From assembly GCA_034521815.1 (NCBI GenBank), contig JAXHLW010000013.1:544001-608000 (forward strand): a stretch of 64,000 nt of DNA, given 5' to 3'. The position numbers and the translations under genes are program-made. Source of the DNA: Trueperaceae bacterium (GTDB lineage: Bacteria > Deinococcota > Deinococci > Deinococcales > Trueperaceae). Below are positions 10,197-21,580 of this stretch, piece by piece (within the stretch, counting starts at the first letter, position 1; each line of letters begins with the position of its first letter). The notes under the pieces are model-generated. The model worked only from the letters and a program-made list of their open reading frames with translations, did not search any database and was not told the DNA's origin.

Positions 10197-11543
10197 CTAC
10201 GGCGCGCCGCGCGCCAGGTCGTTGAAGCGCACGTGAGCGCCGTGGAACTGCAGGTCGACCGCGCCGACCGGCCCGTTGCGCTGCTTGCCGATCAGGATCT
10301 CCGCGATGCCCTGCTTCTCGGAGTGGGGATCGTAGTACTCGTCGCGGTAGATGAACATCACCAGGTCGGCGTCCTGCTCGATCGCTCCCGACTCGCGCAG
10401 GTCGGACAGCATCGGCCGCTTGTTCGGCCGACTCTCGACCGCGCGCGACAGCTGCGAGAGCACCAGGACGGGCACGTCCAGCTCGCGAGCCAGCGCCTTC
10501 AGGCCGCGCGAGATGCTGCTGATCTCCTGCTGGCGGTTCTCGGAGCCGAAGCGGCCGGCGGTGTGACCCGACATCAGCTGCAGGTAGTCGACCACGATCA
10601 GCCCCAGGTCGTGCTCCGCCATCAGCCTTCGCGACCGGCTGCGCAGCTCCATCACCGTCATGTCGGCGTGATCGTCGATGAAGATCTTGGCCTCGCTCAT
10701 CCGTCCCGCGGTGTCGGCCAGGCGCTGGAAGTCGCGATCGGTGAGCTGACCGTTGCGGACACGGCTCATGTCGACCCGCGCCTCGCTGCAGATCATGCGC
10801 GTGACGAGCTGAACCCCCGACATCTCCAGACTGAACAGCCCGACCGTCTTCTTCTCGCGGAGCGCCACGTTCAGGGCGATCGACAACGCCAGCGCCGTCT
10901 TGCCCATGCTGGGCCGCGCAGCCAGGACGTTCAGGCTGGAGGGCTGCAGCCCGGCGGTCAGCTGGTCGAGCTCCTTGAATCCCGTTCGGATGCCCGAGAC
11001 CGGATTGGGGTTCGCGAACAGCTCGTTGATGTGAGCGAACGTCTCGGTGACCAGCTCGCTCATCGAGCCGAACCCGTCGGACCGCTTGCTGCTGGCCAGC
11101 TCGAAGATGGCCTTCTCGGAGGCGTCCAGCACCTCCTCGAGCGGCATCGACTGGTCGTACGCGGTCTGCATGATCTGTCCGCTAGCGGAGATCAGGTCCC
11201 TGAGCACCGCCTTCTCGGTGACGATGCGGGCGTAGCTCTCGGCGTACGCGGCGGTGGGCACGCCGTCGGCCAGGCCGATCAGGTACGGGACGTTGCCGAC
11301 CTCGTCGAGCTCGCTGCTCTGGCGCAGCTCCTCGGTGAGGGTGACGAGGTCGATCGGGTCTCCGCGATGGAACAGGCGCTCCATGCCCCGGAACACCTTG
11401 CGGTGTCCCTCCTTGTAGAAGTGCTCCGCGCGGAGCGTGCCCTCGAGGGTGGCGTACACCTCGTTGTCGAGAAGGATGCTGCCGAGCACGCTCTGCTCGG
11501 CGTCGAGGTTCTGCGGGGGGGTCCGGCTCTCCACGGCGGTCAT
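10197..11543 (-). CDS. dnaB: replicative DNA helicase
   Basis: AARPSMGKT, FSLEMS, VDYLQLM, SQLSRAVESR, DLRESGAIEQDAD, KQRNGP; no intein. Confidence 0.98.
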   Translation of the reverse strand: MTAVESRTPPQNLDAEQSVLGSILLDNEVYATLEGTLRAEHFYKEGHRKVFRGMERLFHRGDPIDLVTLTEELRQSSELDEVGNVPYLIGLADGVPTAAYAESYARIVTEKAVLRDLISASGQIMQTAYDQSMPLEEVLDASEKAIFELASSKRSDGFGSMSELVTETFAHINELFANPNPVSGIRTGFKELDQLTAGLQPSSLNVLAARPSMGKTALALSIALNVALREKKTVGLFSLEMSGVQLVTRMICSEARVDMSRVRNGQLTDRDFQRLADTAGRMSEAKIFIDDHADMTVMELRSRSRRLMAEHDLGLIVVDYLQLMSGHTAGRFGSENRQQEISSISRGLKALARELDVPVLVLSQLSRAVESRPNKRPMLSDLRESGAIEQDADLVMFIYRDEYYDPHSEKQGIAEILIGKQRNGPVGAVDLQFHGAHVRFNDLARGAP

Positions 11544-11626
11544 CGTACCTGCGCGGCGGTCGGGCGGGTCGGCGGCTGCGCGTCACGTACCCGGGCGCGC
11601 CGGGCCCGGCCGGTACACTGTCGACG

Positions 11627-13309
11627 ATGACGCCGCTCTGGATGGTCCTCGTGTCGCTGGTCGCAGGCTGGGCGATCGGCTCGGCGCCGCTGGGCGCGTG
11701 GTGGATCCGCCGTGCCGCGGGGCGCGATCCGCGCGACCTGAACCCGTCCCTGCTGGGCGTCGAGAACGTGTTCCGGCTGCTCGGACCGCCCGTCGCGGCG
11801 GTCGGCTTCATCCTCGACGTGCTCAAGGGCGCGGTGGCGGTGGTGATCGCGCCCGCGGCCGGCGCGGCGGCGGTGGGCGTCCTGGCGGGCCACGTCCTTC
11901 CGCCCCCCTGGCCCGGCGACGCGCGCGCCCCGCGAGGCCGCGGCAACGGCGTGCTGGCGGGGGCGCTGACGGCGCTGGTCGCTGCGGGCGACATGCCGTT
12001 CCTGGCGGCGGGCGCGGGGGCGGCCGTGTACGCCGCGGCGTTGGCGCAGTGGGGGTTCGCGACGCCGGCGACGCTGCTGGGGCTGCTGACGATGCTGATG
12101 TGGCCCGGTGCCCCCGTGGGCGTCTCCGCGGGCTGGCTGGCGCTGTTGACGGTGCGCGGCCTTCCGTCGCTGGCGCGCATCGCGGACGGCACCGAGCCAC
12201 GGCTGGGCGATCCTCCCCCGGTGCGGGGTCTGGCACCGGGCCGGGTGCGCGCGGCGTTCATGATCCATCCGATGACGCTGGACGACATCTGGCAGGTCCC
12301 GAGCCAGCGCTGGGTGCATCTCCTTCACCGGCGGGGCTGGCTGCCCGAGCCCGCGCTTCGGCGGGTCTTGCCGTGGCTGCGTCCCCAGCTCCACGGGATC
12401 GTGCGCGGCGTCGAGCTGGCCGACGGACGGACGCTGGAGGTGGTGCTGATCGGCGGTCCGATGCTTCCCGACCAGATCCGCGCCGACCCGGCGACGGCGA
12501 CCCGAATGGCGATCCGGGGCGCCCAGCTGGCCCGCGAGATGGGCGCCGAGGCGTTCGGTCTGGGCGCGTTCTGGTCCACGGTGGGCGACAAGGGACGGAG
12601 GGTCCAGGAGGCGGTGCCGGACCTGCCCGTCACGCACGGTGGCAGCTACACCGCCGCGACCGTCGGAGCGGCGATCCCCGGTCTGCTGGAGCGGTTCCGC
12701 GAGGAGGGCGGGACCTTGGCGCGCAGCACCGCCGCGGTCGTGGGCGCCAACGGCGTGGTCGCGTTCGGCGTCGCGCGCACGCTGGCGGAGCACGTCGGCG
12801 AGCTGATCCTGATCGGGACCGATCCGGTTCGCCTGGAACGGAGCGCCGCGACGCTACGGCACAAGCATCCGACGCTGGAGGTCCGCACCTCGACCGACCC
12901 GGCGGACGTGGCTGCGGCCGACCTGGTGTTCACGGCCACCAGCGATCCGGGCGTCGTCATCCGGCCGGAGCATGTCCGGCCGGGCGCCTGGATCTACGAT
13001 CTGGGTCGTCCGGCCGACGTCGATCCCGCCGTCCGCGAGGTGCCCGGCGTGCAGCTCGTGCCCGGCGGCGTGGTTCGGCCGCCCGGGCGAAGCGTGAGCG
13101 ACCTGGACCTGCACTTCGGCGACGGGCTGGTGCCCGCCTGCCTGGCGGAGACGATGATCCTGGCGGCCAGCGGCGAGCCGCACCGCGCCAAGACCGGTGG
13201 CACGGCCCGGGCGGCCGACGTGGCCTGGTTCCTGCAGGAGGGGCAGCGCCTGGGGTTCGAGATCGTGACGCGCGACGACCGGGTGGTGCGCGCCGAGGTC
13301 GTGCCTTGA
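11627..13309 (+). CDS. fusion of divergent PlsY-like acyltransferase domain and acyl-ACP-reductase-like NAD(P)-binding domain
   Basis: N-terminal GSAP, D.R...GVEN..R, DVLKG, AGH..P, GTEPR; C-terminal AFMIHP, GLGAFWS, THGGSYT, VVGANGVVA, DLGRP.D, ACLAET. Confidence 0.8.
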   Translation: MTPLWMVLVSLVAGWAIGSAPLGAWWIRRAAGRDPRDLNPSLLGVENVFRLLGPPVAAVGFILDVLKGAVAVVIAPAAGAAAVGVLAGHVLPPPWPGDARAPRGRGNGVLAGALTALVAAGDMPFLAAGAGAAVYAAALAQWGFATPATLLGLLTMLMWPGAPVGVSAGWLALLTVRGLPSLARIADGTEPRLGDPPPVRGLAPGRVRAAFMIHPMTLDDIWQVPSQRWVHLLHRRGWLPEPALRRVLPWLRPQLHGIVRGVELADGRTLEVVLIGGPMLPDQIRADPATATRMAIRGAQLAREMGAEAFGLGAFWSTVGDKGRRVQEAVPDLPVTHGGSYTAATVGAAIPGLLERFREEGGTLARSTAAVVGANGVVAFGVARTLAEHVGELILIGTDPVRLERSAATLRHKHPTLEVRTSTDPADVAAADLVFTATSDPGVVIRPEHVRPGAWIYDLGRPADVDPAVREVPGVQLVPGGVVRPPGRSVSDLDLHFGDGLVPACLAETMILAASGEPHRAKTGGTARAADVAWFLQEGQRLGFEIVTRDDRVVRAEVVP

Positions 13310-13349
13310 CGGGTCCTGCCTCGAGCGGGCCGCCTCCGAAGGCGGCCCC

Positions 13350-14129
13350 ATGAAAGCGTTCCGGTTCGCCGGCGATCTGGAGGCCGATCCTCCGGCGGCG
13401 GCCGCGCTGTGGGCGGCGGGGTGCCGCGGGATGCAGCAGGAGGGCGAGGAGATCGTCGCCTGGTTCGACGACGAGCGGGCGCTGCCGGTGCGCGGCCGCT
13501 GGGAGGAGGCGGACGACACCGACTGGGTGGCCAGCTACTTCGCCGGCCTGAAGCCGGTGCGGCTCACCACCTTGGTGGTCGCGCCCACCCACGCGGAGGT
13601 GGCGCTGACGGCGGGGCAGAAGCCGCTGTGGCTGGATCCCGGCATGGCGTTCGGCACCGGCCACCACGAGACGACGCGCATGGCGCTGTCGCGACTGGAA
13701 CGGGCGGAGCTGACCGGAGCACGCGTGCTGGACGTCGGGGCGGGGTCGGGGATCCTGGCCATCGCGGCGGACCTGTTGGGCGCGGCGTCGGCGCTGGGTG
13801 TCGACGTCGATCCTGCGACGCTGCCGGTGGCCGCGGAGAACGCCCGGCTGAACAGGTCGCGGGCACGTTTCGAGCTGGCCACCGTGGACCGGGCGCGACC
13901 CGAGCAGCGCTGCGACGTGCTGGTCGCGAACCTGTTCGCCGAGCTCCATGCCGAGCTCGCCGGCGAGTACGCGGCGGTGCTCGCACCGGGAGGCGCAGCG
14001 TTTCTGACGGGCATCCTGGACGATCGGGCCGACCTGGTCGAGGCGGCGCTGCCGGCCTCGCTGCGCCTGCTGGCCAGCGAGGCCGACGGCCCGTGGCGCC
14101 TGATGGCGCTGCAGCGGGTCGGATCGTGA
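13350..14129 (+). CDS. prmA: ribosomal protein L11 methyltransferase
   Basis: DPGMAFGTGHHETT, VLDVGAGSGILAI, VANL, GIL. Confidence 0.95.
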   Translation: MKAFRFAGDLEADPPAAAALWAAGCRGMQQEGEEIVAWFDDERALPVRGRWEEADDTDWVASYFAGLKPVRLTTLVVAPTHAEVALTAGQKPLWLDPGMAFGTGHHETTRMALSRLERAELTGARVLDVGAGSGILAIAADLLGAASALGVDVDPATLPVAAENARLNRSRARFELATVDRARPEQRCDVLVANLFAELHAELAGEYAAVLAPGGAAFLTGILDDRADLVEAALPASLRLLASEADGPWRLMALQRVGS

Positions 14130-14542
14130 GGTCGCACGTGGGCAGGACCGTGGCACGCTGGCTGGCCCTGGCGCTGGTGGCGGCCAGCTCCGCCTGCACG
14201 CCGCTGTACCTTCCGCCGGTCCCGCAGCAGCTGCCCACGCTGGAGACGCGCCTCCGCTTGCGCGATGTGCGCGTCGACCGGCTGGGCGGCCAGCCTGCGC
14301 TGGCGTTCGTCGCTGCCGAGGTGCCCACGCCGGGGTGGGCGGCCGTGCAGTGGTTCCCGCCCAGCGGGGGCGAGGTGGCGTCGGCCAGCGTGTGGCTGGA
14401 CGAAGCGTCGCTGGGCAGGGTGACGCGCGTTCCGTTCCCGGACGACGTCGCCCGCGAGCGTCCCGGCCGCTGGCGGGCGGTGCTGTCGTTCGGCGACCGC
14501 ATCGTCCGTCAGCTCGAATGGGACGAGCCCGCCGGACCGTAG
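14126..14542 (+). CDS. putative lipoprotein
   Basis: GTG overlaps prmA stop; hydrophobic stretch with SSAC lipobox; beta-rich body. Confidence 0.7.
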   Translation: MRSHVGRTVARWLALALVAASSACTPLYLPPVPQQLPTLETRLRLRDVRVDRLGGQPALAFVAAEVPTPGWAAVQWFPPSGGEVASASVWLDEASLGRVTRVPFPDDVARERPGRWRAVLSFGDRIVRQLEWDEPAGP

Positions 14543-14579
14543 CGGTCGGGCGGGCTCGTGACGGACGGATCGTCGGACG

Positions 14580-16772
14580 TCAGGCGGCTCGGCGAGCTCC
14601 TCTGAGCGAGTCGCGCTGCCGGCCCTTGAACCAGACCACCAGCGGCGAGAGGATGAAGATGCTCGAGTACGTCCCGACGCCGATGCCGATCAGCAGGGTG
14701 GCCGAGAAGTCGCGCAGCACGCTCCCCCCGAACAGCAGCAGGGCGATGACCGGCAGCAGGGTGGTGCCGGAGGTCATCAGGGTGCGCGACAGGGTCTGGT
14801 TGACCGACAGGTCCACGATCTCCTCGTAGCTGCGGTCGCGGACCTTGCGCAAGTTCTCGCGGATCCGGTCGGCGATGATGATCGAGTCGTTCAGCGAGTA
14901 GCCGACGACGAACAGCATCGCGGCCAGGACCGGAATGCTGAACTGGGCGTTCAGCAGGTCGATCACGCCCAGCGTGATGCCGACGTCGTGGATCGCGGCG
15001 ATGACCGCGGCGATCGCCACGATCCAGGTCGGCCAGAAGCGCCACGACACGTACAGCAGGATCAGCGCCAGCGCCACGCCGACGGCGTACAGCGCACCGC
15101 GGCGCAGGTCGGCCCCGACGGCGGGCCCGACGAAGTCGGCCTGCAGCAGCGAGGCGTTCAGGGCGCTCGCCAGGTCGGTGGGGAACTGGTCGGCGACGTC
15201 CTCGTTCTCGGTCAGGCCCACGCGGACGCTCATCAGGTTCTCGCCCAGCACGTCGTCCTGCACCTCGACCACGGTCGCTTCGTCGCCCGACACGCCTTCG
15301 AACCCGAGCGCGTCGATCGCGGACCGGACGCCGCCGACGGTCAGCGGCTCCTCGCCCTGCATCAGCACCGCGGTGCCGCCGGTGAAGTCGGTGGAGAGCT
15401 GCAGCCCCTTGATCGCCACGGTGGCGATCGCCCCCAGCGCCAGCACGGCCGAGATCGCCATGACGACCGGGGCACGCCGGACGAAGCGGAAGCGGAGGCC
15501 GGTCGCGTAGAACCCTTTGGGCATCATCGGACGGCGGATCTTGGTGCTGGCCAGGTCCAACATCCAGGGGACGACCACGGTGTTGACGAACACCGCGGCG
15601 ACGATCCCGATCGCCAGCGTGATCGCGAAGCCCCGCACCGGACCGGCGGTGTACTGGTACAGCGTTCCGGCGGCCAGCAGGGTCGTGACGTTGGCGTCGA
15701 TGATGGCCGAGAGCGAGTTGCCGAAGCCGTGCTTCATCGACAGCCTGAGCCCGCGTCCGGCGCGGAGCTCCTCCTTGATGCGCTCGAAGCTGATCACGTT
15801 GCCGTCGACGGCGGCTCCGATGGTCAGCACCAGGCCGGCCAGGCCGGGCAGCGTCAGCGCGGCGCCCAGGCCGGCGAGCACGCCGAACACGAACAGCAGC
15901 GCCAGCATGACGCCGACGGTGAGAATCCCGCCGAACAACGGACCGTAGTACGCCAGGATCACAACGATCACCGCCGCGCCGCCGATCAGCGCCGCGTTGC
16001 GGCCGGCCCGGATCGAGTCCTGGCCCAGCGTCGGCCCGATCGAGCGGACCTCCTGGACCTGGAGGTTGATCGGCAGGCTGCCGCTGCGGAGCACCAGCGC
16101 GATGTCGGTCGCCTCGTCCAAGCTCTCGATGCCGGTGATCTGGCCCGAGTCGCTGATGCGCGACTGCAGCGTGGGGGCGGTGATGATGGTCCCGTCCAGC
16201 ACGATCGCCATCCGGCGGCCGGTGTTGCTGCCGGTGAAGTCGCCGAAGTCGGACGCGTTCTCGCGCTTGATCTCGAAGAACACGGCCGGCCCCATCGAGG
16301 CGCCGCCGACCCGCTCGAAGTCCGCGCTGGCGGTGCGGACGATCTCGCCCGTGAAGGCGGTCTCCTCGAGCTGCTCCAAGGTGAGCTGCGAGGTCAGCAG
16401 ACTGTTCGCCTCGGGCCGCACGAGCGCGAACTCGAGCTGCGCCTGCTGGCCGATCAGGTCCAGCGCGCGGTCCTGATCGCTGGAGGTGAGCCCGGGCAGC
16501 TCGACGATGATGCGATCGCCGCCGCTGGTCTGGATCAGCGGCTCGGCGACGCCGAACTCGTTCACGCGGTTCTCGATGATGTTGCGGGCGGCCTGCAGAT
16601 CCTGAGGTGCGGGGTCGGGCAGCTCGGACTGCAGCACGACGCGGAGGCCGCCCTGGAGGTCGAGGCCGAGCTTCAGGGCGTCCGCGTCAGGCGTCCACGG
16701 TTTCCAGAGGTAGGCCAGCGAGGCGAGGATGGCGGCCAGCACCAGCAGGCCGGTGAACAATCGTTGGGTCAT
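14580..16772 (-). CDS. secDF: protein translocase subunit SecDF (fused)
   Basis: LGLDLQGG, GPTLGQD, AVDGNV..FERIKEE, DANVTT, DFTGG, GYSLNDSIII.DRIRE, RTLMTS. Confidence 0.97.
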   Translation of the reverse strand: MTQRLFTGLLVLAAILASLAYLWKPWTPDADALKLGLDLQGGLRVVLQSELPDPAPQDLQAARNIIENRVNEFGVAEPLIQTSGGDRIIVELPGLTSSDQDRALDLIGQQAQLEFALVRPEANSLLTSQLTLEQLEETAFTGEIVRTASADFERVGGASMGPAVFFEIKRENASDFGDFTGSNTGRRMAIVLDGTIITAPTLQSRISDSGQITGIESLDEATDIALVLRSGSLPINLQVQEVRSIGPTLGQDSIRAGRNAALIGGAAVIVVILAYYGPLFGGILTVGVMLALLFVFGVLAGLGAALTLPGLAGLVLTIGAAVDGNVISFERIKEELRAGRGLRLSMKHGFGNSLSAIIDANVTTLLAAGTLYQYTAGPVRGFAITLAIGIVAAVFVNTVVVPWMLDLASTKIRRPMMPKGFYATGLRFRFVRRAPVVMAISAVLALGAIATVAIKGLQLSTDFTGGTAVLMQGEEPLTVGGVRSAIDALGFEGVSGDEATVVEVQDDVLGENLMSVRVGLTENEDVADQFPTDLASALNASLLQADFVGPAVGADLRRGALYAVGVALALILLYVSWRFWPTWIVAIAAVIAAIHDVGITLGVIDLLNAQFSIPVLAAMLFVVGYSLNDSIIIADRIRENLRKVRDRSYEEIVDLSVNQTLSRTLMTSGTTLLPVIALLLFGGSVLRDFSATLLIGIGVGTYSSIFILSPLVVWFKGRQRDSLRGARRAA

Positions 16773-16886
16773 CGGGGCTCCCTATCGACGCGTCGTCGTC
16801 GAGGCGTCGTCATGTCGGTGGTGTTCAGAGCTGTGGTGTTCAGAGCTGTTCGGGATGCGGGCGTGTCGTGCCATGCCGCCCGACCC

Positions 16887-17309
16887 TCAGCCGCCTTCCA
16901 AGTTCCTTCGGGCGAACCACCGTTGCGCGCGGGTTCGCACGGCCCCGCGCGATCCCAGGAGGTGCCTGCCGGCCGGCGTGGCGGGCCGGGTCACGGCCGC
17001 GCGCCGCACCGTGCCGGCGAGCCGGTGATGGCTGGCCGGCGCGCTCGCGGACGACACCGGGGCCGTCCACAGCAGCGTCGTGGGCGTGGCGGTCAGGCCC
17101 GGATCGGCCGGCCCGTCGGCCGGCCGGTCGGCTCGGCTCGCGTCCGGGTGCAGCTGCAGCCCGGCCAGCGCCACCGACGTCGCCAACAGGAGCGCGACCG
17201 CCAGCGTCACCGTCGCCGCCACCATCGCCGCCACCGCGACGCCGGACGGGTCGCGGGATCGCACGCAGGGGCGCGATCGAGCGGGGCGGGGAGGACGGGC
17301 GCGGATCAC
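16887..17309 (-). CDS. hypothetical membrane-targeted leader protein upstream of secDF (candidate arrest peptide)
   Basis: TAGGAT -10 box 7 nt before GTG 17309; basic N-terminus, hydrophobic segment, Pro/Ala/Thr linker, ends WFARRNLEGG. Confidence 0.6.
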   Translation of the reverse strand: MIRARPPRPARSRPCVRSRDPSGVAVAAMVAATVTLAVALLLATSVALAGLQLHPDASRADRPADGPADPGLTATPTTLLWTAPVSSASAPASHHRLAGTVRRAAVTRPATPAGRHLLGSRGAVRTRAQRWFARRNLEGG

Positions 17310-17374
17310 GCGCGCCATCCTACCCCGCCCCGCGGGAGCGACGGTCGGTCCGTCGCGCTCCCGGGTCCGCGCGC

Positions 17375-19231
17375 TCAGGCGAGCGGGATCTCGACCATCT
17401 CGTAGACCTCGATCACGTCGCCTTCCTGCACGTTGTCGTAGTTCTGCAGGTTCACGCCGCACTCGAACCCCTGCGTCACCTCGCGCACGTCCTCCTTGAA
17501 GCGCTTGAGGCCGGCGACCGTGCCCTTGTACACCTCTTTGCCGTCGCGGGTGACGCGCGCCTTGGCGTTGCGCCTGAGCACGCCGTTCGTGACGTACGAG
17601 CCGGCGATGTTGCCGCTCCGGGGGACGCGGATGACCGCGCGGACCTCGGCGTGCCCGATGACCTTCTCTTCGAACTCGGGCTCGATCTGGCCGCGGATCA
17701 TCCGCTGCACGTCCTCGATCAGCTGGTAGATGATCTTGTACGTCTTGAGCGGAATGCCCTGGCGCTCGGCGGACTTCTTGACCGCGCCGGAGGGGTTGAC
17801 GCCGAAGGTGATCACCTGGGCGTCGGCGGTGGAGGCCAGCAGCAGGTCGGACTCGGTCGGGGCGCCGACCTCGGCCAGCATGATGTCGAGGTCGACTTCC
17901 TCGGTCGCCTCGGACTCGCGCTCCAGCACGCCCTTGATCGCTTCGAGCGTGCCTTGCGTGTCGGCCCTCAGCACCAGCGGAATCACCGTCTTGGTGGTCT
18001 TGCCGAACAGATCGGCCAGCGTGATGTTCTTGCGCCCGATCGCCTCGCGCTCGATCGTCTCGCGCTCGTCTTGGCGCGTTTCGGCGAGCTCCTTGGCGGC
18101 GGCCTCGTTCGGTGCCGCCTCGACCAGCGCGCCGGCCTGCGGCTGGCTGCTGAAGCCGAGGATCTGGACCGGCGTCGAAGGACCGGCCTCCTTCAGCGTC
18201 TTGCCGGTGTGGTCGGTGAGCCGGCGGATCTTGGCCCACGCCTCGCCCGAGACGACGTAGTCCGCGACGTGGAGCGTGCCGCGCTGCACCAGCACCGTCG
18301 ACAGCACGCCGGCCTGCTTGTCGAGGATCGACTCGATCACGACGCCCTTGGCGCGTCCGCGCGGATCGGCACGAAGGTCCTCGACCTCGGCGACCAGCGC
18401 GATCATCTCGAGCAGGTCGGGAATCCCCTCGCCCGTCTCGGCGCTGATCGGCACGGTGATCGTCTCGCCGCCGTAGTCCTCGGGCACCAGCTCGACCTGC
18501 ATCAGGTCGCGCTTGACGCGATCGGGGTCGGACTGCGGCAGGTCGATCTTGTTGATCGCCACCAGGATCGGCACGCCGGCGGCCTTGGCGTGGGCGATCG
18601 CCTCGCGCGTCTGCGGCATGATGCTGTCGTCCGCGGCGATGACGATCACGGCGATGTCGGTGGCGTTGGCGCCGCGCTGGCGGATGGCGGTGAACGCCTC
18701 GTGGCCTGGCGTGTCGAGGAAGGTGATCGGCCCGTGCACCGTGTCGGCGATGTACGCGCCGATGTGCTGGGTGATCCCGCCCGCCTCGCCCGCGGCGACC
18801 CGCGTCTTGCGGATATGGTCCAGCAGGCTGGTCTTGCCGTGGTCGACGTGGCCCATGACGGTCACGACCGGCGCCCTGAGCGGGAACGGCTGGCCGTCCT
18901 CGTCGAGCTCGGGACCGGCGTCGGCCGTGGCGACCGGCTCGGCCGGCTCGCCGGGCGAATCGGTCGTGGCGGCTGCGGCGGCCTCGTCCTGGTCCGCCTC
19001 GTCCGCGGCGGCCTGATCCGGGCTGGCCTCGTCGGGGCTGGCCTCGGCGCTGGAGGACTCGCCGTCACGGTCGGCCTCGACCAGGTCACGCACGGTGCTG
19101 GCGGTGTCGGCGTCCAAGGTGCTGGAGTGCGACTTGTACTCGACCCCCATGTCGTCCAGGATGGCGAGCAGCTCCTTGGATTCGACGCCTAGGTCTTTCG
19201 CGAGTTGGTAGATCCGGACTTTCGTGGGCAT
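17375..19231 (-). CDS. infB: translation initiation factor IF-2
   Basis: [33 protein letters not shown]. Confidence 0.98.
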
Positions 19232-19552
19232 TCATCCCTCCCTGACGGGGCGTTCCCTGACGGGACGTTCGGTCACCTGCCGATCGAGCTCCGCCGCCAC
19301 CTCGGGGGCGGAGGCTCGAAAAGCGCGCCTGAGGTCTTTTTCGCTGGCCCGGGCCGCGCACGACGCGCACAGCCAAGCGCCTCGTCCACCGGCCTTGCCG
19401 GCCGGGTCGAGATGCCAAGCTCCGTCCGCCGTGCGCGCGACGCGCAGCAGCTCGGCCTTGGGCGCCGAGGTGCGGCAGCGAACGCAGCGTCGCATGGGGA
19501 CGTGTCGCGTGCCGACGTGTCGCTTGGGGACGTGGGGAGTGCGCGCCGTCAC
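19232..19552 (-). CDS. ylxR: YlxR/DUF448 family RNA-binding protein
   Basis: PMRRCVRCR..K.ELLR, GRGAWLC; between nusA and infB. Confidence 0.9.
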   Translation of the reverse strand: MTARTPHVPKRHVGTRHVPMRRCVRCRTSAPKAELLRVARTADGAWHLDPAGKAGGRGAWLCASCAARASEKDLRRAFRASAPEVAAELDRQVTERPVRERPVREG

Positions 19553-19554
19553 GG

Positions 19555-20961
19555 TCAGGACCCGCCGCCGCTCGTGTCCTTGTCGGAGAGGCCGTGCTCG
19601 GGCACGTCGTCCTCGGTGCGCTCCGCCTCGGCGTCGTCGAGCATGTCCTCGGCTACGGCGTCAGGGGCGGCCTCGGGGATCTCCTCCTCGAGCAGCTCGG
19701 TCTCGGTGCGCGGCGGCTGGTCCTCCCCTTCGGTCCCGGGCTGGGGGCCTGAGACCGTCCCGGGCTCCGACGCCGCGACGATCTCGGCGTCGGTGGGGAC
19801 GCCTCCGGGCTGGCCGCTCCCGAACAGCGCGTCGAACCGGGCACGCGAGCCGGCCTGCGGAGCGTACGGGTCGTCCAGCCGGGTGGCGGCCGCCTGCATC
19901 GCCGCGTCCAGGTCGCTGGTCGTGTCCGACGCCTCGAGGTCGATCTTGTAGCCGGTCAGCTTCACCGCCAGGCGGACGTTCTGCCCGCCCTTGCCGATCG
20001 CCAGCGAGAGCTGGTCCTCGGGAACGAGGACGCGCGCCTGCATCTCCTCCGAATCGAGCTCGATGGTGCCCACCTTGGCGGGGGAGAGCGCGTTGCGGAT
20101 GAACTCGCGCGGGTTGGCGTCCCACATGATGATGTCGACCCGCTCGCGCTGCAGCTCGGCGGTGACCGCCTGGATGCGGCTGCCGCGATGGCCGATGCAG
20201 GCGCCGATCGGGTCCACGTTCGGGCTGTTGCTGGTGACGGCCACCTTGCTGCGTGCGCCGGCCTCGCGGGCGGTCGCCTTGATCTCGACGGTGCCGTCGG
20301 CGACCTCGGGAATCTCCTGGCGCATCAGGTAGGTGAGCAGCTCGCCCGCCGCGCGCGACACCAGGATGCTGGGACCGCGGGTCCCGAGCTCGACGCTGGC
20401 GACGTACACCTTCAGGCGCATGCCCACCATGTAGCGCTCGCCCTGGATCTGCTCGCGCGGCGGCATGATCGCCTCGCCGCGGCCCAGGTCCACGAACACG
20501 TTGCGCTTGTTGTCGACGCGGCTGACGACGCCGGTGATGATCTCGCCGGCACGGTCCTTGTACTCCTCGTACACCAGCGCGCGCTCGGCCTCGCGGATCT
20601 TCTGGGTGATCATCTGCTTCGACGTCTGGACGGCGATGCGGGTGAACTTCTCGGGATCGACCGGGAACTCCATCTCCATGCCGACCTCGACGTCGGGATC
20701 GAGATCCACGGCCTCGCCCAAGAGGATCTCCTTCTCGTGCTCGTCCTCGTCCTCGTTGGGCTCCTCGACCACCTTGCGGATCTCGAGGACCTCCATCTCG
20801 CCGGACTCGGGGTCGATCGTGACCTCGATCCGCCGGCCGGGCATGACGTTGCGCTCGAACGCGTGCTCGAGCGCCTCCTCGAAGCTGACCAGCAGCTGGT
20901 CCTTGTCGAGGTTGCGTTCCGCCGCCATCATGTTGAGGGCGTCGATGAATTCCTTGTTCAT
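19555..20961 (-). CDS. nusA: transcription termination factor NusA
   Basis: S1 and KH domains: AREAGARSKVAV, DPIGACIG, LSLAIGKGGQNVRLA; ATG 20961; acidic tail. Confidence 0.97.
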   Translation of the reverse strand: MNKEFIDALNMMAAERNLDKDQLLVSFEEALEHAFERNVMPGRRIEVTIDPESGEMEVLEIRKVVEEPNEDEDEHEKEILLGEAVDLDPDVEVGMEMEFPVDPEKFTRIAVQTSKQMITQKIREAERALVYEEYKDRAGEIITGVVSRVDNKRNVFVDLGRGEAIMPPREQIQGERYMVGMRLKVYVASVELGTRGPSILVSRAAGELLTYLMRQEIPEVADGTVEIKATAREAGARSKVAVTSNSPNVDPIGACIGHRGSRIQAVTAELQRERVDIIMWDANPREFIRNALSPAKVGTIELDSEEMQARVLVPEDQLSLAIGKGGQNVRLAVKLTGYKIDLEASDTTSDLDAAMQAAATRLDDPYAPQAGSRARFDALFGSGQPGGVPTDAEIVAASEPGTVSGPQPGTEGEDQPPRTETELLEEEIPEAAPDAVAEDMLDDAEAERTEDDVPEHGLSDKDTSGGGS

Positions 20962-20996
20962 GGGGTGTCCGTCTCCTTCGTCGTATTCGGTTGTCG

Positions 20997-21440
20997 TCAG
21001 CGCGGCTCGTCGGGCCATTCGGCCAACCGCGCGGTCTCGATGTCGTCCAGGTCCAGCACGATCCGCTCGCCGTCGACCTCGAACGTGACCCGGTCTCGCT
21101 CGACCTCGCGAACGACGCCGGTGAAGGCGCGATCGGCGGTACGGACCTTGGCCCGCAGGTCGTGGAACCGTTCGAAGTGCCGCGCCCGGAAGAGCGGCCT
21201 CTCGGCGCCGGGCGACTCGATCTCGAGCTGGTACGCAGCGGCGATCGGGTCGAGCCGGTCGAGCTCCAGCCCGAACGCCTCGCCCGCGATCTGCACGTCC
21301 TCGACCGAGACGAGCTCTTCGTCCAGACGGTCGATGCGCACCAGGACTCGCGGCGTGCGTCCCTTCCGGGACATCGTGGCCTCGAGCACCTCGTAGCCGA
21401 GCGGCGCGAGAACCTCGCGAGCGGCCTGCGCCAGATCCAT
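20997..21440 (-). CDS. rimP: ribosome maturation factor RimP
   Basis: LVRIDR, LDPI..AYQLEIESPGAERPL; AGGAGG SD before ATG 21440. Confidence 0.93.
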   Translation of the reverse strand: MDLAQAAREVLAPLGYEVLEATMSRKGRTPRVLVRIDRLDEELVSVEDVQIAGEAFGLELDRLDPIAAAYQLEIESPGAERPLFRARHFERFHDLRAKVRTADRAFTGVVREVERDRVTFEVDGERIVLDLDDIETARLAEWPDEPR

Positions 21441-21512
21441 GCTACCTCCTAAGGTCCGCGCCGCCCCGCGGCCTGCGTTCGGCGATGCGTGCGGCGATGC
21501 GTGCCAGGCAAC

Positions 21513-21580
21513 GAAAAAGGCGGGCTCTGGAACACCCACCCGTCACGGCAGCCGGACCGTCGTCCGTTCACCATCCTAGC
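21513..21580 (-). promoter_or_regulatory. rimP operon promoter and leader hairpin
   Basis: Minus strand TAGGAT -10, then GGGTGGG-loop-CCCGCC-TTTTT, the kind of hairpin commonly seen before rimP. Confidence 0.6.

Follow-up and report, generated by a model that had tools for sequence, protein, structure and literature searches.

Introduction

Secretion monitors, among them SecM, MifM, VemP, and the additions of 2021 to 2026, are the best-understood force-sensing nascent chains that report to gene expression, and each new arrest motif has so far revealed another way of disabling the catalytic center of the ribosome. SecM, ApcA, ApdA, ApdP, and RQH stall in elongation with Pro-tRNA in the A site, and VemP has been proposed to raise SecDF when export is poor. 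Here, we describe a leader open reading frame (ORF), hereafter the upstream ORF (uORF), that lies ahead of secDF on the minus strand of a 64,000-nucleotide (nt) stretch of a Trueperaceae genome (contig JAXHLW010000013.1, positions 544,001 to 608,000; the window). Judging from its sequence features, the uORF product is probably a Sec-monitoring arrest peptide of a new class that controls secDF.

In VemP, the C-terminal arrest region forms helices in the exit tunnel (PMC5449182). A survey of leader peptides describes three classes that stall at the stop codon: uDF_NAP-stop and uA_NSP-stop stall with the stop codon in the A site, and uDF_DGMK-stop requires its stop codon and most likely stalls in the same state; two of the three lie upstream of secDF and one upstream of secA (PMC10987492). 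In the classes that end in proline, the conserved residues reach the stop, and the A site holds the stop codon according to toeprints (PMC10987492). For LudP, a preprint describes a tunnel helix with essential Ile, Tyr, and His residues, followed by an essential Asp-Gly pair near the catalytic center, in which the Asp both displaces U2506 and obstructs the release factor (10.64898/2026.10.26.761930).

Results

A conserved ORF upstream of secDF in Deinococcota

The secDF loci of 129 species-level Deinococcota genomes (29 + 100), falling into five families (f1 to f5), were searched on the secDF strand for ORFs that measure 60 codons or more from stop to stop and end in [DE]-G-G-stop no more than 450 nt upstream of secDF. 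Such an ORF was present at 106 of the 129 loci, 52 to 341 nt before secDF, with these counts representing non-independent events among the related genomes of one phylum. By family, it was found at 34 of 45 loci in f1, 29 of 32 in f2, 8 of 9 in f3, 35 of 40 in f4, and none of 3 in f5. As a background, only 13 of the 21,147 six-frame ORFs of at least 60 amino acids in the window's genome end in [DE]GG, and the secDF-upstream ORF is the only one of the 13 that adds the rest of the motif in a plausible protein. A second, partly overlapping set of loci with record titles carried the ORF at 60 of 75 assessable loci, including those of Oceanithermus profundus, Truepera sp., and one of two Truepera radiovictrix records. 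The uORF of the window comprises the following features:

16887..17318, minus strand: uORF of secDF, 143 amino acids from ATG 17318, with stop TGA at 16889-16887; homologues in place at 106 of 129 loci
17160..17246, minus strand: N-terminal hydrophobic segment SGVAVAAMVAATVTLAVALLLATSVALAG, residues 25-53, preceded by an Arg-rich N-region; from the AlphaFold2 helix and hydropathy
17067..17105, minus strand: weakly conserved G-[LMFW] patch DPGLTATPTTLLW, residues 72-84; G74 in at least 90% of a 22-member alignment, predicted helix at 79-84
16890..16928, minus strand: conserved C-terminal motif AQRWFARRNLEGG; from counts over 106 ORFs, synonymous codon variation, and a predicted helix at 130-140
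16887..16889, minus strand: stop TGA immediately past Gly-Gly; proposed stall site, with the stop codon in the A site

The initial annotation of this DNA had reported a 140-amino-acid ORF on the secDF strand, 114 nt ahead of secDF, and both the coordinates and the public gene call agree with it; an alternative in-frame start at GTG 17309 yields 140 amino acids, the same length as the public call. The basic N-terminus, the hydrophobic stretch, the Pro/Ala/Thr-rich linker that joins this stretch to the C-terminus, and the C-terminal end itself were all found where that annotation had placed them. Residues 25-53 are predicted to be a Sec signal or signal-anchor, and the G-[LMFW] patch lies about 20 residues beyond this hydrophobic segment.

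The G+C content of the uORF by codon position is 0.757/0.701/0.903, the third position being the highest and the second unusually G+C-rich. A third-position value of 0.903 fits a translated frame in a genome whose genes average 0.95; in secDF, infB, and nusA, the third position reaches 0.945 to 0.96 and is likewise the highest. A chance ORF of a G+C-rich genome was rejected on the grounds of third-position G+C and of the 106 of 129 loci set against the background of 13 in 21,147.

The uORF is tied to secDF rather than to the gene on its other side. Although infB lies upstream at 75 of the 106 uORF loci, the remaining 31 (27 of them in f2) have no infB within 1.1 to 1.5 kilobases (kb) upstream, and the uORF still adjoins secDF there.

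Among the 23 loci that lacked a hit, four were unjudgeable, L015 having only 226 nt of upstream sequence and L056-L058 a misplaced secDF start. Seven others carry variants: L013 ends in RLQL-stop, L098 in EGC-stop, L126 in LEG-stop, and L107 in LGGG-stop; L096 has a canonical end with only 32 open codons; and the f5 loci L023 and L025 end in RWNE-stop and RWLE-stop, respectively, with no Gly-Gly. The last twelve have no candidate at all, and infB abuts secDF or lies within 175 nt of it in eight of these. The single Gly of L126, an f2 (Deinococcus-type) locus whose uORF ends in GRWQLEG-stop, reflects natural variation or else an error in sequencing. In f5, signal-bearing ORFs lie upstream of secDF at L023:3906-4295 (minus strand) and L025:655-966 (plus strand), and these may be a diverged form of the same leader. 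The f5 SecDF proteins have an N-terminal extension of about 30 residues.

Conservation of signal, length, and C-terminus

Conservation acts on the peptide and is restricted to its signal, its length, and its C-terminus. In an alignment of 22 members, mean column identity was 24%, and the invariant positions were M1, one Pro, and the two terminal Gly residues. The protein body differs completely among f1 to f4, whereas the last 9 to 13 positions are conserved across these four families. Over the 106 ORFs, the consensus end is [LYF]-x-x-[LYF]-[GA]-[RK]-[LR]-[QL]-[LTSM]-[DE]-G-G, with Arg in 85 and Lys in 13 at position -7, and Asp in 54 and Glu in 52 at position -3; Gly in all 106 at the final two positions, together with the adjacent stop, was an inclusion criterion and is thus not an independent observation. 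The conserved residues are encoded by varying synonymous codons (GGC, GGT, GGA, and GGG at the Gly positions; GAA, GAG, GAC, and GAT at the acidic position; and five Arg codons), so that selection acts on the peptide and not on an RNA element.

The N-terminal hydrophobic segment, judged by hydropathy and the AlphaFold2 helix rather than by a dedicated signal-peptide predictor, was present in all 106 ORFs, and its 12-residue hydropathy score reached at least 2.0 in 104 of them. In control frames (the other two frames of the same DNA), 6 to 23 of 212 contained a hydrophobic segment, and 6 of 212 reached this score. The distance from the hydrophobic segment to the C-terminus ranged from 49 to 119 residues (median, 82.5; 106 ORFs), with family medians of 89 in f1, 82 in f2, 83 in f3, and 82 in f4 and interquartile ranges of 1 to 5 residues. 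Despite this nearly constant length, the linker sequence cannot be aligned between families.

The ratio of nonsynonymous to synonymous substitution rates (dN/dS) was relaxed: in seven close pairs, it was 0.35 to 0.79 for the uORF versus 0.04 to 0.35 for secDF. AlphaFold2, run with the alignment, predicted a membrane helix at residues 25-53 (block predicted local distance difference test [pLDDT], 94 to 96), a short helix at 79-84, a C-terminal helix at 130-140 (block pLDDT, 85), and no other fold (mean pLDDT, 69; predicted template modeling score, 0.32). The comparison of secDF-upstream ORFs in Deinococcota that the initial annotation had proposed gave conservation of ORF position, signal, and C-terminal end, and none of the linker sequence, the outcome that an arrest peptide would predict. 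Its description of an arrest-peptide layout (signal, linker, and C-terminal motif, upstream of secDF) held in four of the five sampled families. The motif had also been described as different from RAGP and RAPP, and the counts bear this out: no R-A-P-P- or R-A-G-P-like sequence occurs in the last 16 positions of the 106 ORFs, and Pro is outside the four commonest residues at each of the last 13 positions.

The stop codon

The stop directly abuts Gly-Gly in all 106 canonical ORFs, by the definition of the search, and this position fits stalling at termination. In the Thermaceae-like families f3 and f4 (L018-L022, L029, and L059-L100), the uORF stops are TAG in 27 and TAA in 16, with TGA in none of the 43, whereas TGA ends 75 of 206 likely genes in a 280-kb background from 14 genomes of these families, a contrast that is inflated by kinship among the f3 and f4 genomes. 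The absence of TGA looks selected because TAG and TAA interchange freely there. In f1 and f2, TGA closes 51 of 63 uORFs and is also the dominant stop genome-wide (82% in the window's genome). This distribution suggests that the stop codon itself is part of what selection acts on. Release factors act slowly on a peptidyl-tRNA that ends in Gly; with regard to slow termination at a C-terminal Gly, the literature offered only C-terminal Gly enrichment among apidaecin-stalled ORFs, not in untreated cells.

Neighboring genes, start codon, and leader RNA

The window has a G+C content of 72%, and its source genome consists of 13 contigs and is 83.5% complete. The minus strand carries, in order, nusA, infB, the uORF, and secDF, and the uORF is framed by the following features:

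17375..19231, minus strand: infB (IF-2), the upstream neighbor; its stop lies 56 nt before the uORF ATG
16773..16886, minus strand: uORF-secDF spacer, 114 nt (C, 0.38; G, 0.29), containing a 15-nt tandem repeat, a hairpin, and a Shine-Dalgarno (SD) sequence
16811-16786, minus strand: GC-rich hairpin adjoining the secDF SD, from the minimum-energy fold
16782-16778, minus strand: secDF SD GGGAG, inside the spacer
14580..16772, minus strand: secDF, a fused SecD-SecF of 730 amino acids from ATG 16772 and the presumed regulated gene; secDF is present in 200 of 201 sampled genomes of the phylum

A leaderless start had been suggested for the uORF, from a TAGGAT at 17322-17317 that is separated by 7 nt from GTG 17309. 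We do not retain it for the family. A scan of 16650-17500 found 0 promoter-like sites and no sigma-70-like promoter, ATG 17318 and GTG 17309 are both kept in the nearest relatives (MARV...), and in L004, L005, L007, and L008 the uORF ATG overlaps the infB stop codon (ATGA). In these four relatives, the uORF is probably translated within the nusA-infB operon; a leaderless start is possible in the window and is no property of the family.

The GC-rich hairpin that the initial annotation had placed against the secDF SD is present in the minimum-energy fold. Within the spacer of the window, no Rfam family was matched by the leader (0 matches at E values up to 1), and a scan of 16650-17500 returned 0 terminator-like sites, with no intrinsic terminator in the spacer. 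A perfect 15-nt tandem repeat of 2.1 copies occupies the middle of the spacer (16818-16849; minus-strand unit, CAGCTCTGAACACCA). In L002, the closest relative, three copies of another 15-nt unit occupy this position, the repeat structure being kept and the sequence not.

In the consensus fold of the leaders of two Thermus-type groups, the final Gly codons and the stop form a helix with a C-rich element that is conserved farther downstream, and three pairs just past the stop stay paired through changes on both sides. In one of the two groups (L065, L068, L069, L071, L072, L081, L084, L095, and L097), this element is an invariant CTTCCCC(C)GG about 70 nt past the stop, which is complementary to the last codons of the ORF (CTGGAAGGNGG) and to an internal GGGAAGGGG. 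These predicted pairings fit a switch that is read by ribosome position or by alternative pairing. A single contig of 5.4 to 9.1 kb from RNA libraries spans the Thermus-type infB-uORF-secDF region of L077 in four of four runs, each from a different study, and proves neither transcription nor a single transcript.

Many overlapping ORFs of 100 to 800 codons lie outside the real gene frames at 11182-21539 of the window, and one 450-codon stop-to-stop frame runs from inside infB across the leader ORF. Long, overlapping off-frame ORFs are usual at 72% G+C and are no evidence of genes.

Database and literature searches

Neither Pfam nor NCBIfam contains a family that matches the window protein, and none of the 22 aligned members matches any Pfam family, even at E values up to 10. 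The ESM Atlas gave nothing usable (best feature score, 0.85, below the bar of the tool). When 1.84 billion representative proteins were searched with a profile built from the 22 members, 41 matches were obtained at E values up to 0.001; of the 40 fetched, 39 end in [DE]GG and one in DGA, and all look like members of the Deinococcota-type family. Since the profile itself favors a [DE]GG ending, this search chiefly shows a small and homogeneous family. Public sources label members as "hypothetical protein" in Thermus composti, Thermus igniterrae, and Deinococcus taeanensis.

Two kinds of Gly-Gly protein were considered and rejected. In a double-glycine bacteriocin-type leader, a peptide is released beyond the Gly-Gly, but here the Gly-Gly closes the peptide, leaving nothing to be released, and the N-terminus carries a Sec-type signal. 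A ubiquitin-like or sulfur-carrier Gly-Gly tail was set aside with no fold predicted.

The terms Deinococc-, Thermus, and Thermales are absent from the main text of both Chiba-lab surveys (PMC10987492 and PMC7897499), and the literature consulted, including the LudP preprint, contained nothing that links Deinococcus, Thermus, or a [DE]GG motif to arrest peptides. The more recent search for arrest peptides took small unannotated ORFs directly upstream of secA, secDF, or yidC that have an N-terminal secretion signal or membrane segment and a spacer of more than 30 residues between this signal and a conserved end (PMC10987492). The uORF lies upstream of secDF and has the signal, the conserved C-terminus, and the spacer; since it shows all four properties, the family may be listed, without assay, in the supplementary cluster tables of that survey (PMC10987492).

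Discussion

Proposed mechanism

The features that are conserved in the uORF family can be arranged into a mechanism by which export would be reported to secDF. We infer stalling, the release of the stall by export, and both the direction and the route of the output. The Arg-rich N-region and the hydrophobic segment would bring the nascent chain to the Sec translocon, and the linker of about 82 to 89 residues, free in sequence and nearly fixed in length, would bridge the tunnel of the ribosome and the distance to the membrane. In the upper part of the exit tunnel, the last 12 to 13 residues would then form a short hydrophobic/aromatic helix that includes a conserved Arg or Lys and is followed by Glu/Asp-Gly-Gly, and this C-terminal end may hinder the peptidyl-transferase center so that release at the adjacent stop codon is slow. 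Under efficient export, the pull on the chain would end the stall quickly. Under poor export, the ribosome would remain over the last codons and about 12 nt of the spacer, altering the folding or accessibility of the leader RNA and raising secDF expression, either through translation initiation or through Rho-dependent read-through.

Stalling at termination, with the stop codon in the A site, has close to an even chance of being correct; the alternative stall site has the last Gly codon in the A site. A wider reading, which we regard as possible but rather doubtful, is that the phylum as a whole, Thermus and Deinococcus included, has a native arrest peptide that blocks termination by a new motif composed of a tunnel helix with Arg, Glu/Asp-Gly-Gly, a stop tuned to the release factor, and a ruler-like linker. 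In this form, peptidyl-tRNA(Gly) would be held against attack by the release factor. The stop would be tuned in that it is never UGA in the Thermaceae-like families and mostly UGA in the Trueperaceae-like and Deinococcus-like families, and the 82- to 89-residue linker would act as a ruler that sets the point at which Sec pulling frees the stall.

Several of our observations weigh against an arrest peptide that controls secDF. Some lineages do without the uORF, with infB abutting secDF or within 175 nt of it, and natural variants lose one or both Gly residues (L013, L126, L098, and f5). The nearly fixed linker length is unlike that of the Sec-type monitors in the published survey, which varies widely (PMC10987492), and could equally reflect a structural role. 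YajC (PF02699) scored over the cut-off in none of 61 Deinococcota genomes, compared with 7 positives among 14 control genomes. Unmasking of the SD was weak in the model. For the 106 loci, pairing probabilities of the secDF SD/start region were computed both for the free leader and for a leader whose stop codon is occupied by a ribosome that masks 12 nt of spacer; with folding energies for 37°C, which are wrong for thermophiles, SD accessibility rose by more than 0.1 at 27 of the loci and fell by more than 0.1 at 7. Family means changed from 0.40 to 0.46 in f4, 0.51 to 0.54 in f1, 0.48 to 0.50 in f2, and 0.47 to 0.48 in f3, and in the window accessibility dropped from 0.50 to 0.36, the wrong way. 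RNAalifold found no consensus structure for 12 Deinococcus-type leaders (consensus energy, -0.16 kcal/mol). Complementarity between the ORF end and the spacer in native pairs was barely above that in swapped pairs (mean rank, 0.38 to 0.47; chance, 0.5).

We therefore do not count the SD-hairpin mechanism implied by the initial annotation as support, given the small and inconsistent gains in accessibility (27 loci up, 7 down), the fall in the window, and the lack of a conserved structure in Deinococcus-type leaders. A hairpin spanning the stop codon, sought by covariation, was set aside because native duplexes hardly beat within-family swaps. The frequent pairing of ORF end and spacer arises mostly from composition, a G-rich end meeting a C-rich spacer.

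Alternative explanations

The strongest rival, although we consider it unlikely, is that the uORF product is a small exported or membrane-anchored accessory subunit of SecDF, standing in the operon place of yajC and using its C-terminal helix and Gly-Gly as a binding site with no programmed stalling. In many bacteria, yajC lies immediately upstream of secDF and encodes a small protein with an N-terminal membrane segment, and the uORF occupies that position in a phylum in whose 61 sampled genomes YajC was not detected. The nearly fixed linker length, the predicted helicity of the C-terminal 11 residues (block pLDDT, 85), and the fact that gene callers predict a protein here, entered as "hypothetical protein" in Thermus and Deinococcus records, all suit such a subunit. 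Yet at E values up to 10 the 22 members match neither YajC nor any other Pfam family, and a hydrophobic segment and linker without conserved sequence, with dN/dS at 0.35 to 0.79 and no predicted domain, would be unusual for a stoichiometric partner. Arrest peptides, by contrast, typically show conservation that is confined to the final dozen residues and extends to the stop, and several lineages have dropped the uORF while keeping secDF.

A TnaC-like output is a serious alternative for the route to secDF, if a rather improbable one. In Escherichia coli, TnaC stalls at its stop codon, and the stalled ribosome blocks the loading of Rho on the adjacent spacer; by analogy, the uORF peptide would stall at the stop, its ribosome would cover a C-rich, G-poor spacer, and read-through into secDF would follow. 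Trueperaceae-type and Deinococcus-type leaders are rich in pyrimidines and poor in G, and spacers of this composition occur in f1 (C, 0.39; G, 0.24; n = 34) and f2 (C, 0.37; G, 0.25; n = 29), while 128 co-directional gaps of the window's genome have a mean C-G of +0.023 (standard deviation, 0.09), with 7% reaching +0.15, a background that comes from one genome only. The genome of the window encodes Rho, as do the Thermus and Deinococcus control genomes, and the missing SD-hiding structure in Deinococcus-type leaders and the missing intrinsic terminator in the window spacer are as this route would have it. In f3 and f4, however, C equals G (0.31/0.31) and the leaders are structured, and the window spacer itself, at +0.09, is only in the top 21% of the genome's gaps. 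For this last reason, C-G skew was rejected as a signal for a Rho utilization (rut) site, and it remains a lead.

It is highly improbable that the uORF is a translated leader with no sensing role, which would keep ribosomes on the infB-secDF transcript or deliver them to secDF and owe its C-terminal conservation to an overlapping RNA element. The overlap of the uORF start with the infB stop in L004, L005, L007, and L008 and the ability of the G-rich ORF end to pair with C-rich spacer elements speak for it. Synonymous turnover in the conserved codons, which shows that the peptide and not the RNA is conserved, and an export signal in all 106 ORFs, needless in a coupling ORF, exclude it in our judgment; moreover, spacers of 52 to 341 nt are too long for direct termination-reinitiation coupling.

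Significance and comparison with known systems

If the arrest-peptide reading is true, the uORF family would be the first secretion monitor of Deinococcota, with a Pro-free motif unlike the known ones set directly against the stop codon and a near-universal presence in a whole phylum, as opposed to the patchy distribution reported so far. It would also supply the Thermus ribosome, long the standard subject of crystallography, with a stalling sequence of natural origin, and a test by structure determination would then be unusually direct. A linker almost fixed in length but free in sequence offers a testable quantitative prediction on force transmission, and the apparent absence of YajC from the phylum makes the alternative of a new SecDF partner interesting too.

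Among the described systems, SecM, ApcA, ApdA, ApdP, and RQH resemble the uORF family as leaders of a sec gene with a signal, a spacer, and a C-terminal motif. The Pro-ending stop classes also lie upstream of sec genes, whereas the uORF family ends in Gly-Gly without a conserved Pro in its motif; a C-terminal Pro is a poor substrate for release. YajC shares the position, but PF02699 is matched by neither the window protein nor the 22 members, the uORF body is unconserved, and no fold is predicted. TnaC, which could serve as a model where spacers are C-rich (f1 and f2), differs in being 24 residues long, in lacking an export signal, and in sensing free tryptophan.

VemP, encoded upstream of secD2F2 in Vibrio, is alike in being a small exported peptide with a cleavable-type signal and a conserved C-terminal region, which in VemP is the arrest region. 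It stalls in elongation a few codons before the stop, whereas the uORF motif abuts the stop, and its spacers have a median of 133 residues in the survey (PMC10987492), compared with 82 to 89 in the uORF family. No sequence likeness connects the two: the uORF family had no Pfam match, and its profile matches were all of the Deinococcota type.

Two parallels come from Bacillota. The uDF_DGMK-stop class likewise lies upstream of secDF and has an N-terminal localization signal, an acidic-Gly pair, and an adjacent stop, but its D-G-M-K end was not encountered here; the uORFs end in [DE]-G-G, with the acidic residue one position nearer the stop. LudP, also upstream of secDF, has a hydrophobic/aromatic helix followed by an acidic-Gly pair. 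Both belong to a different phylum and show no detectable homology. The likeness of both to the uORF family in their putative mechanism is a lead and not membership. The [DE]-G-G-stop motif is unlike that of any described class, and its distribution is near-universal in one phylum.

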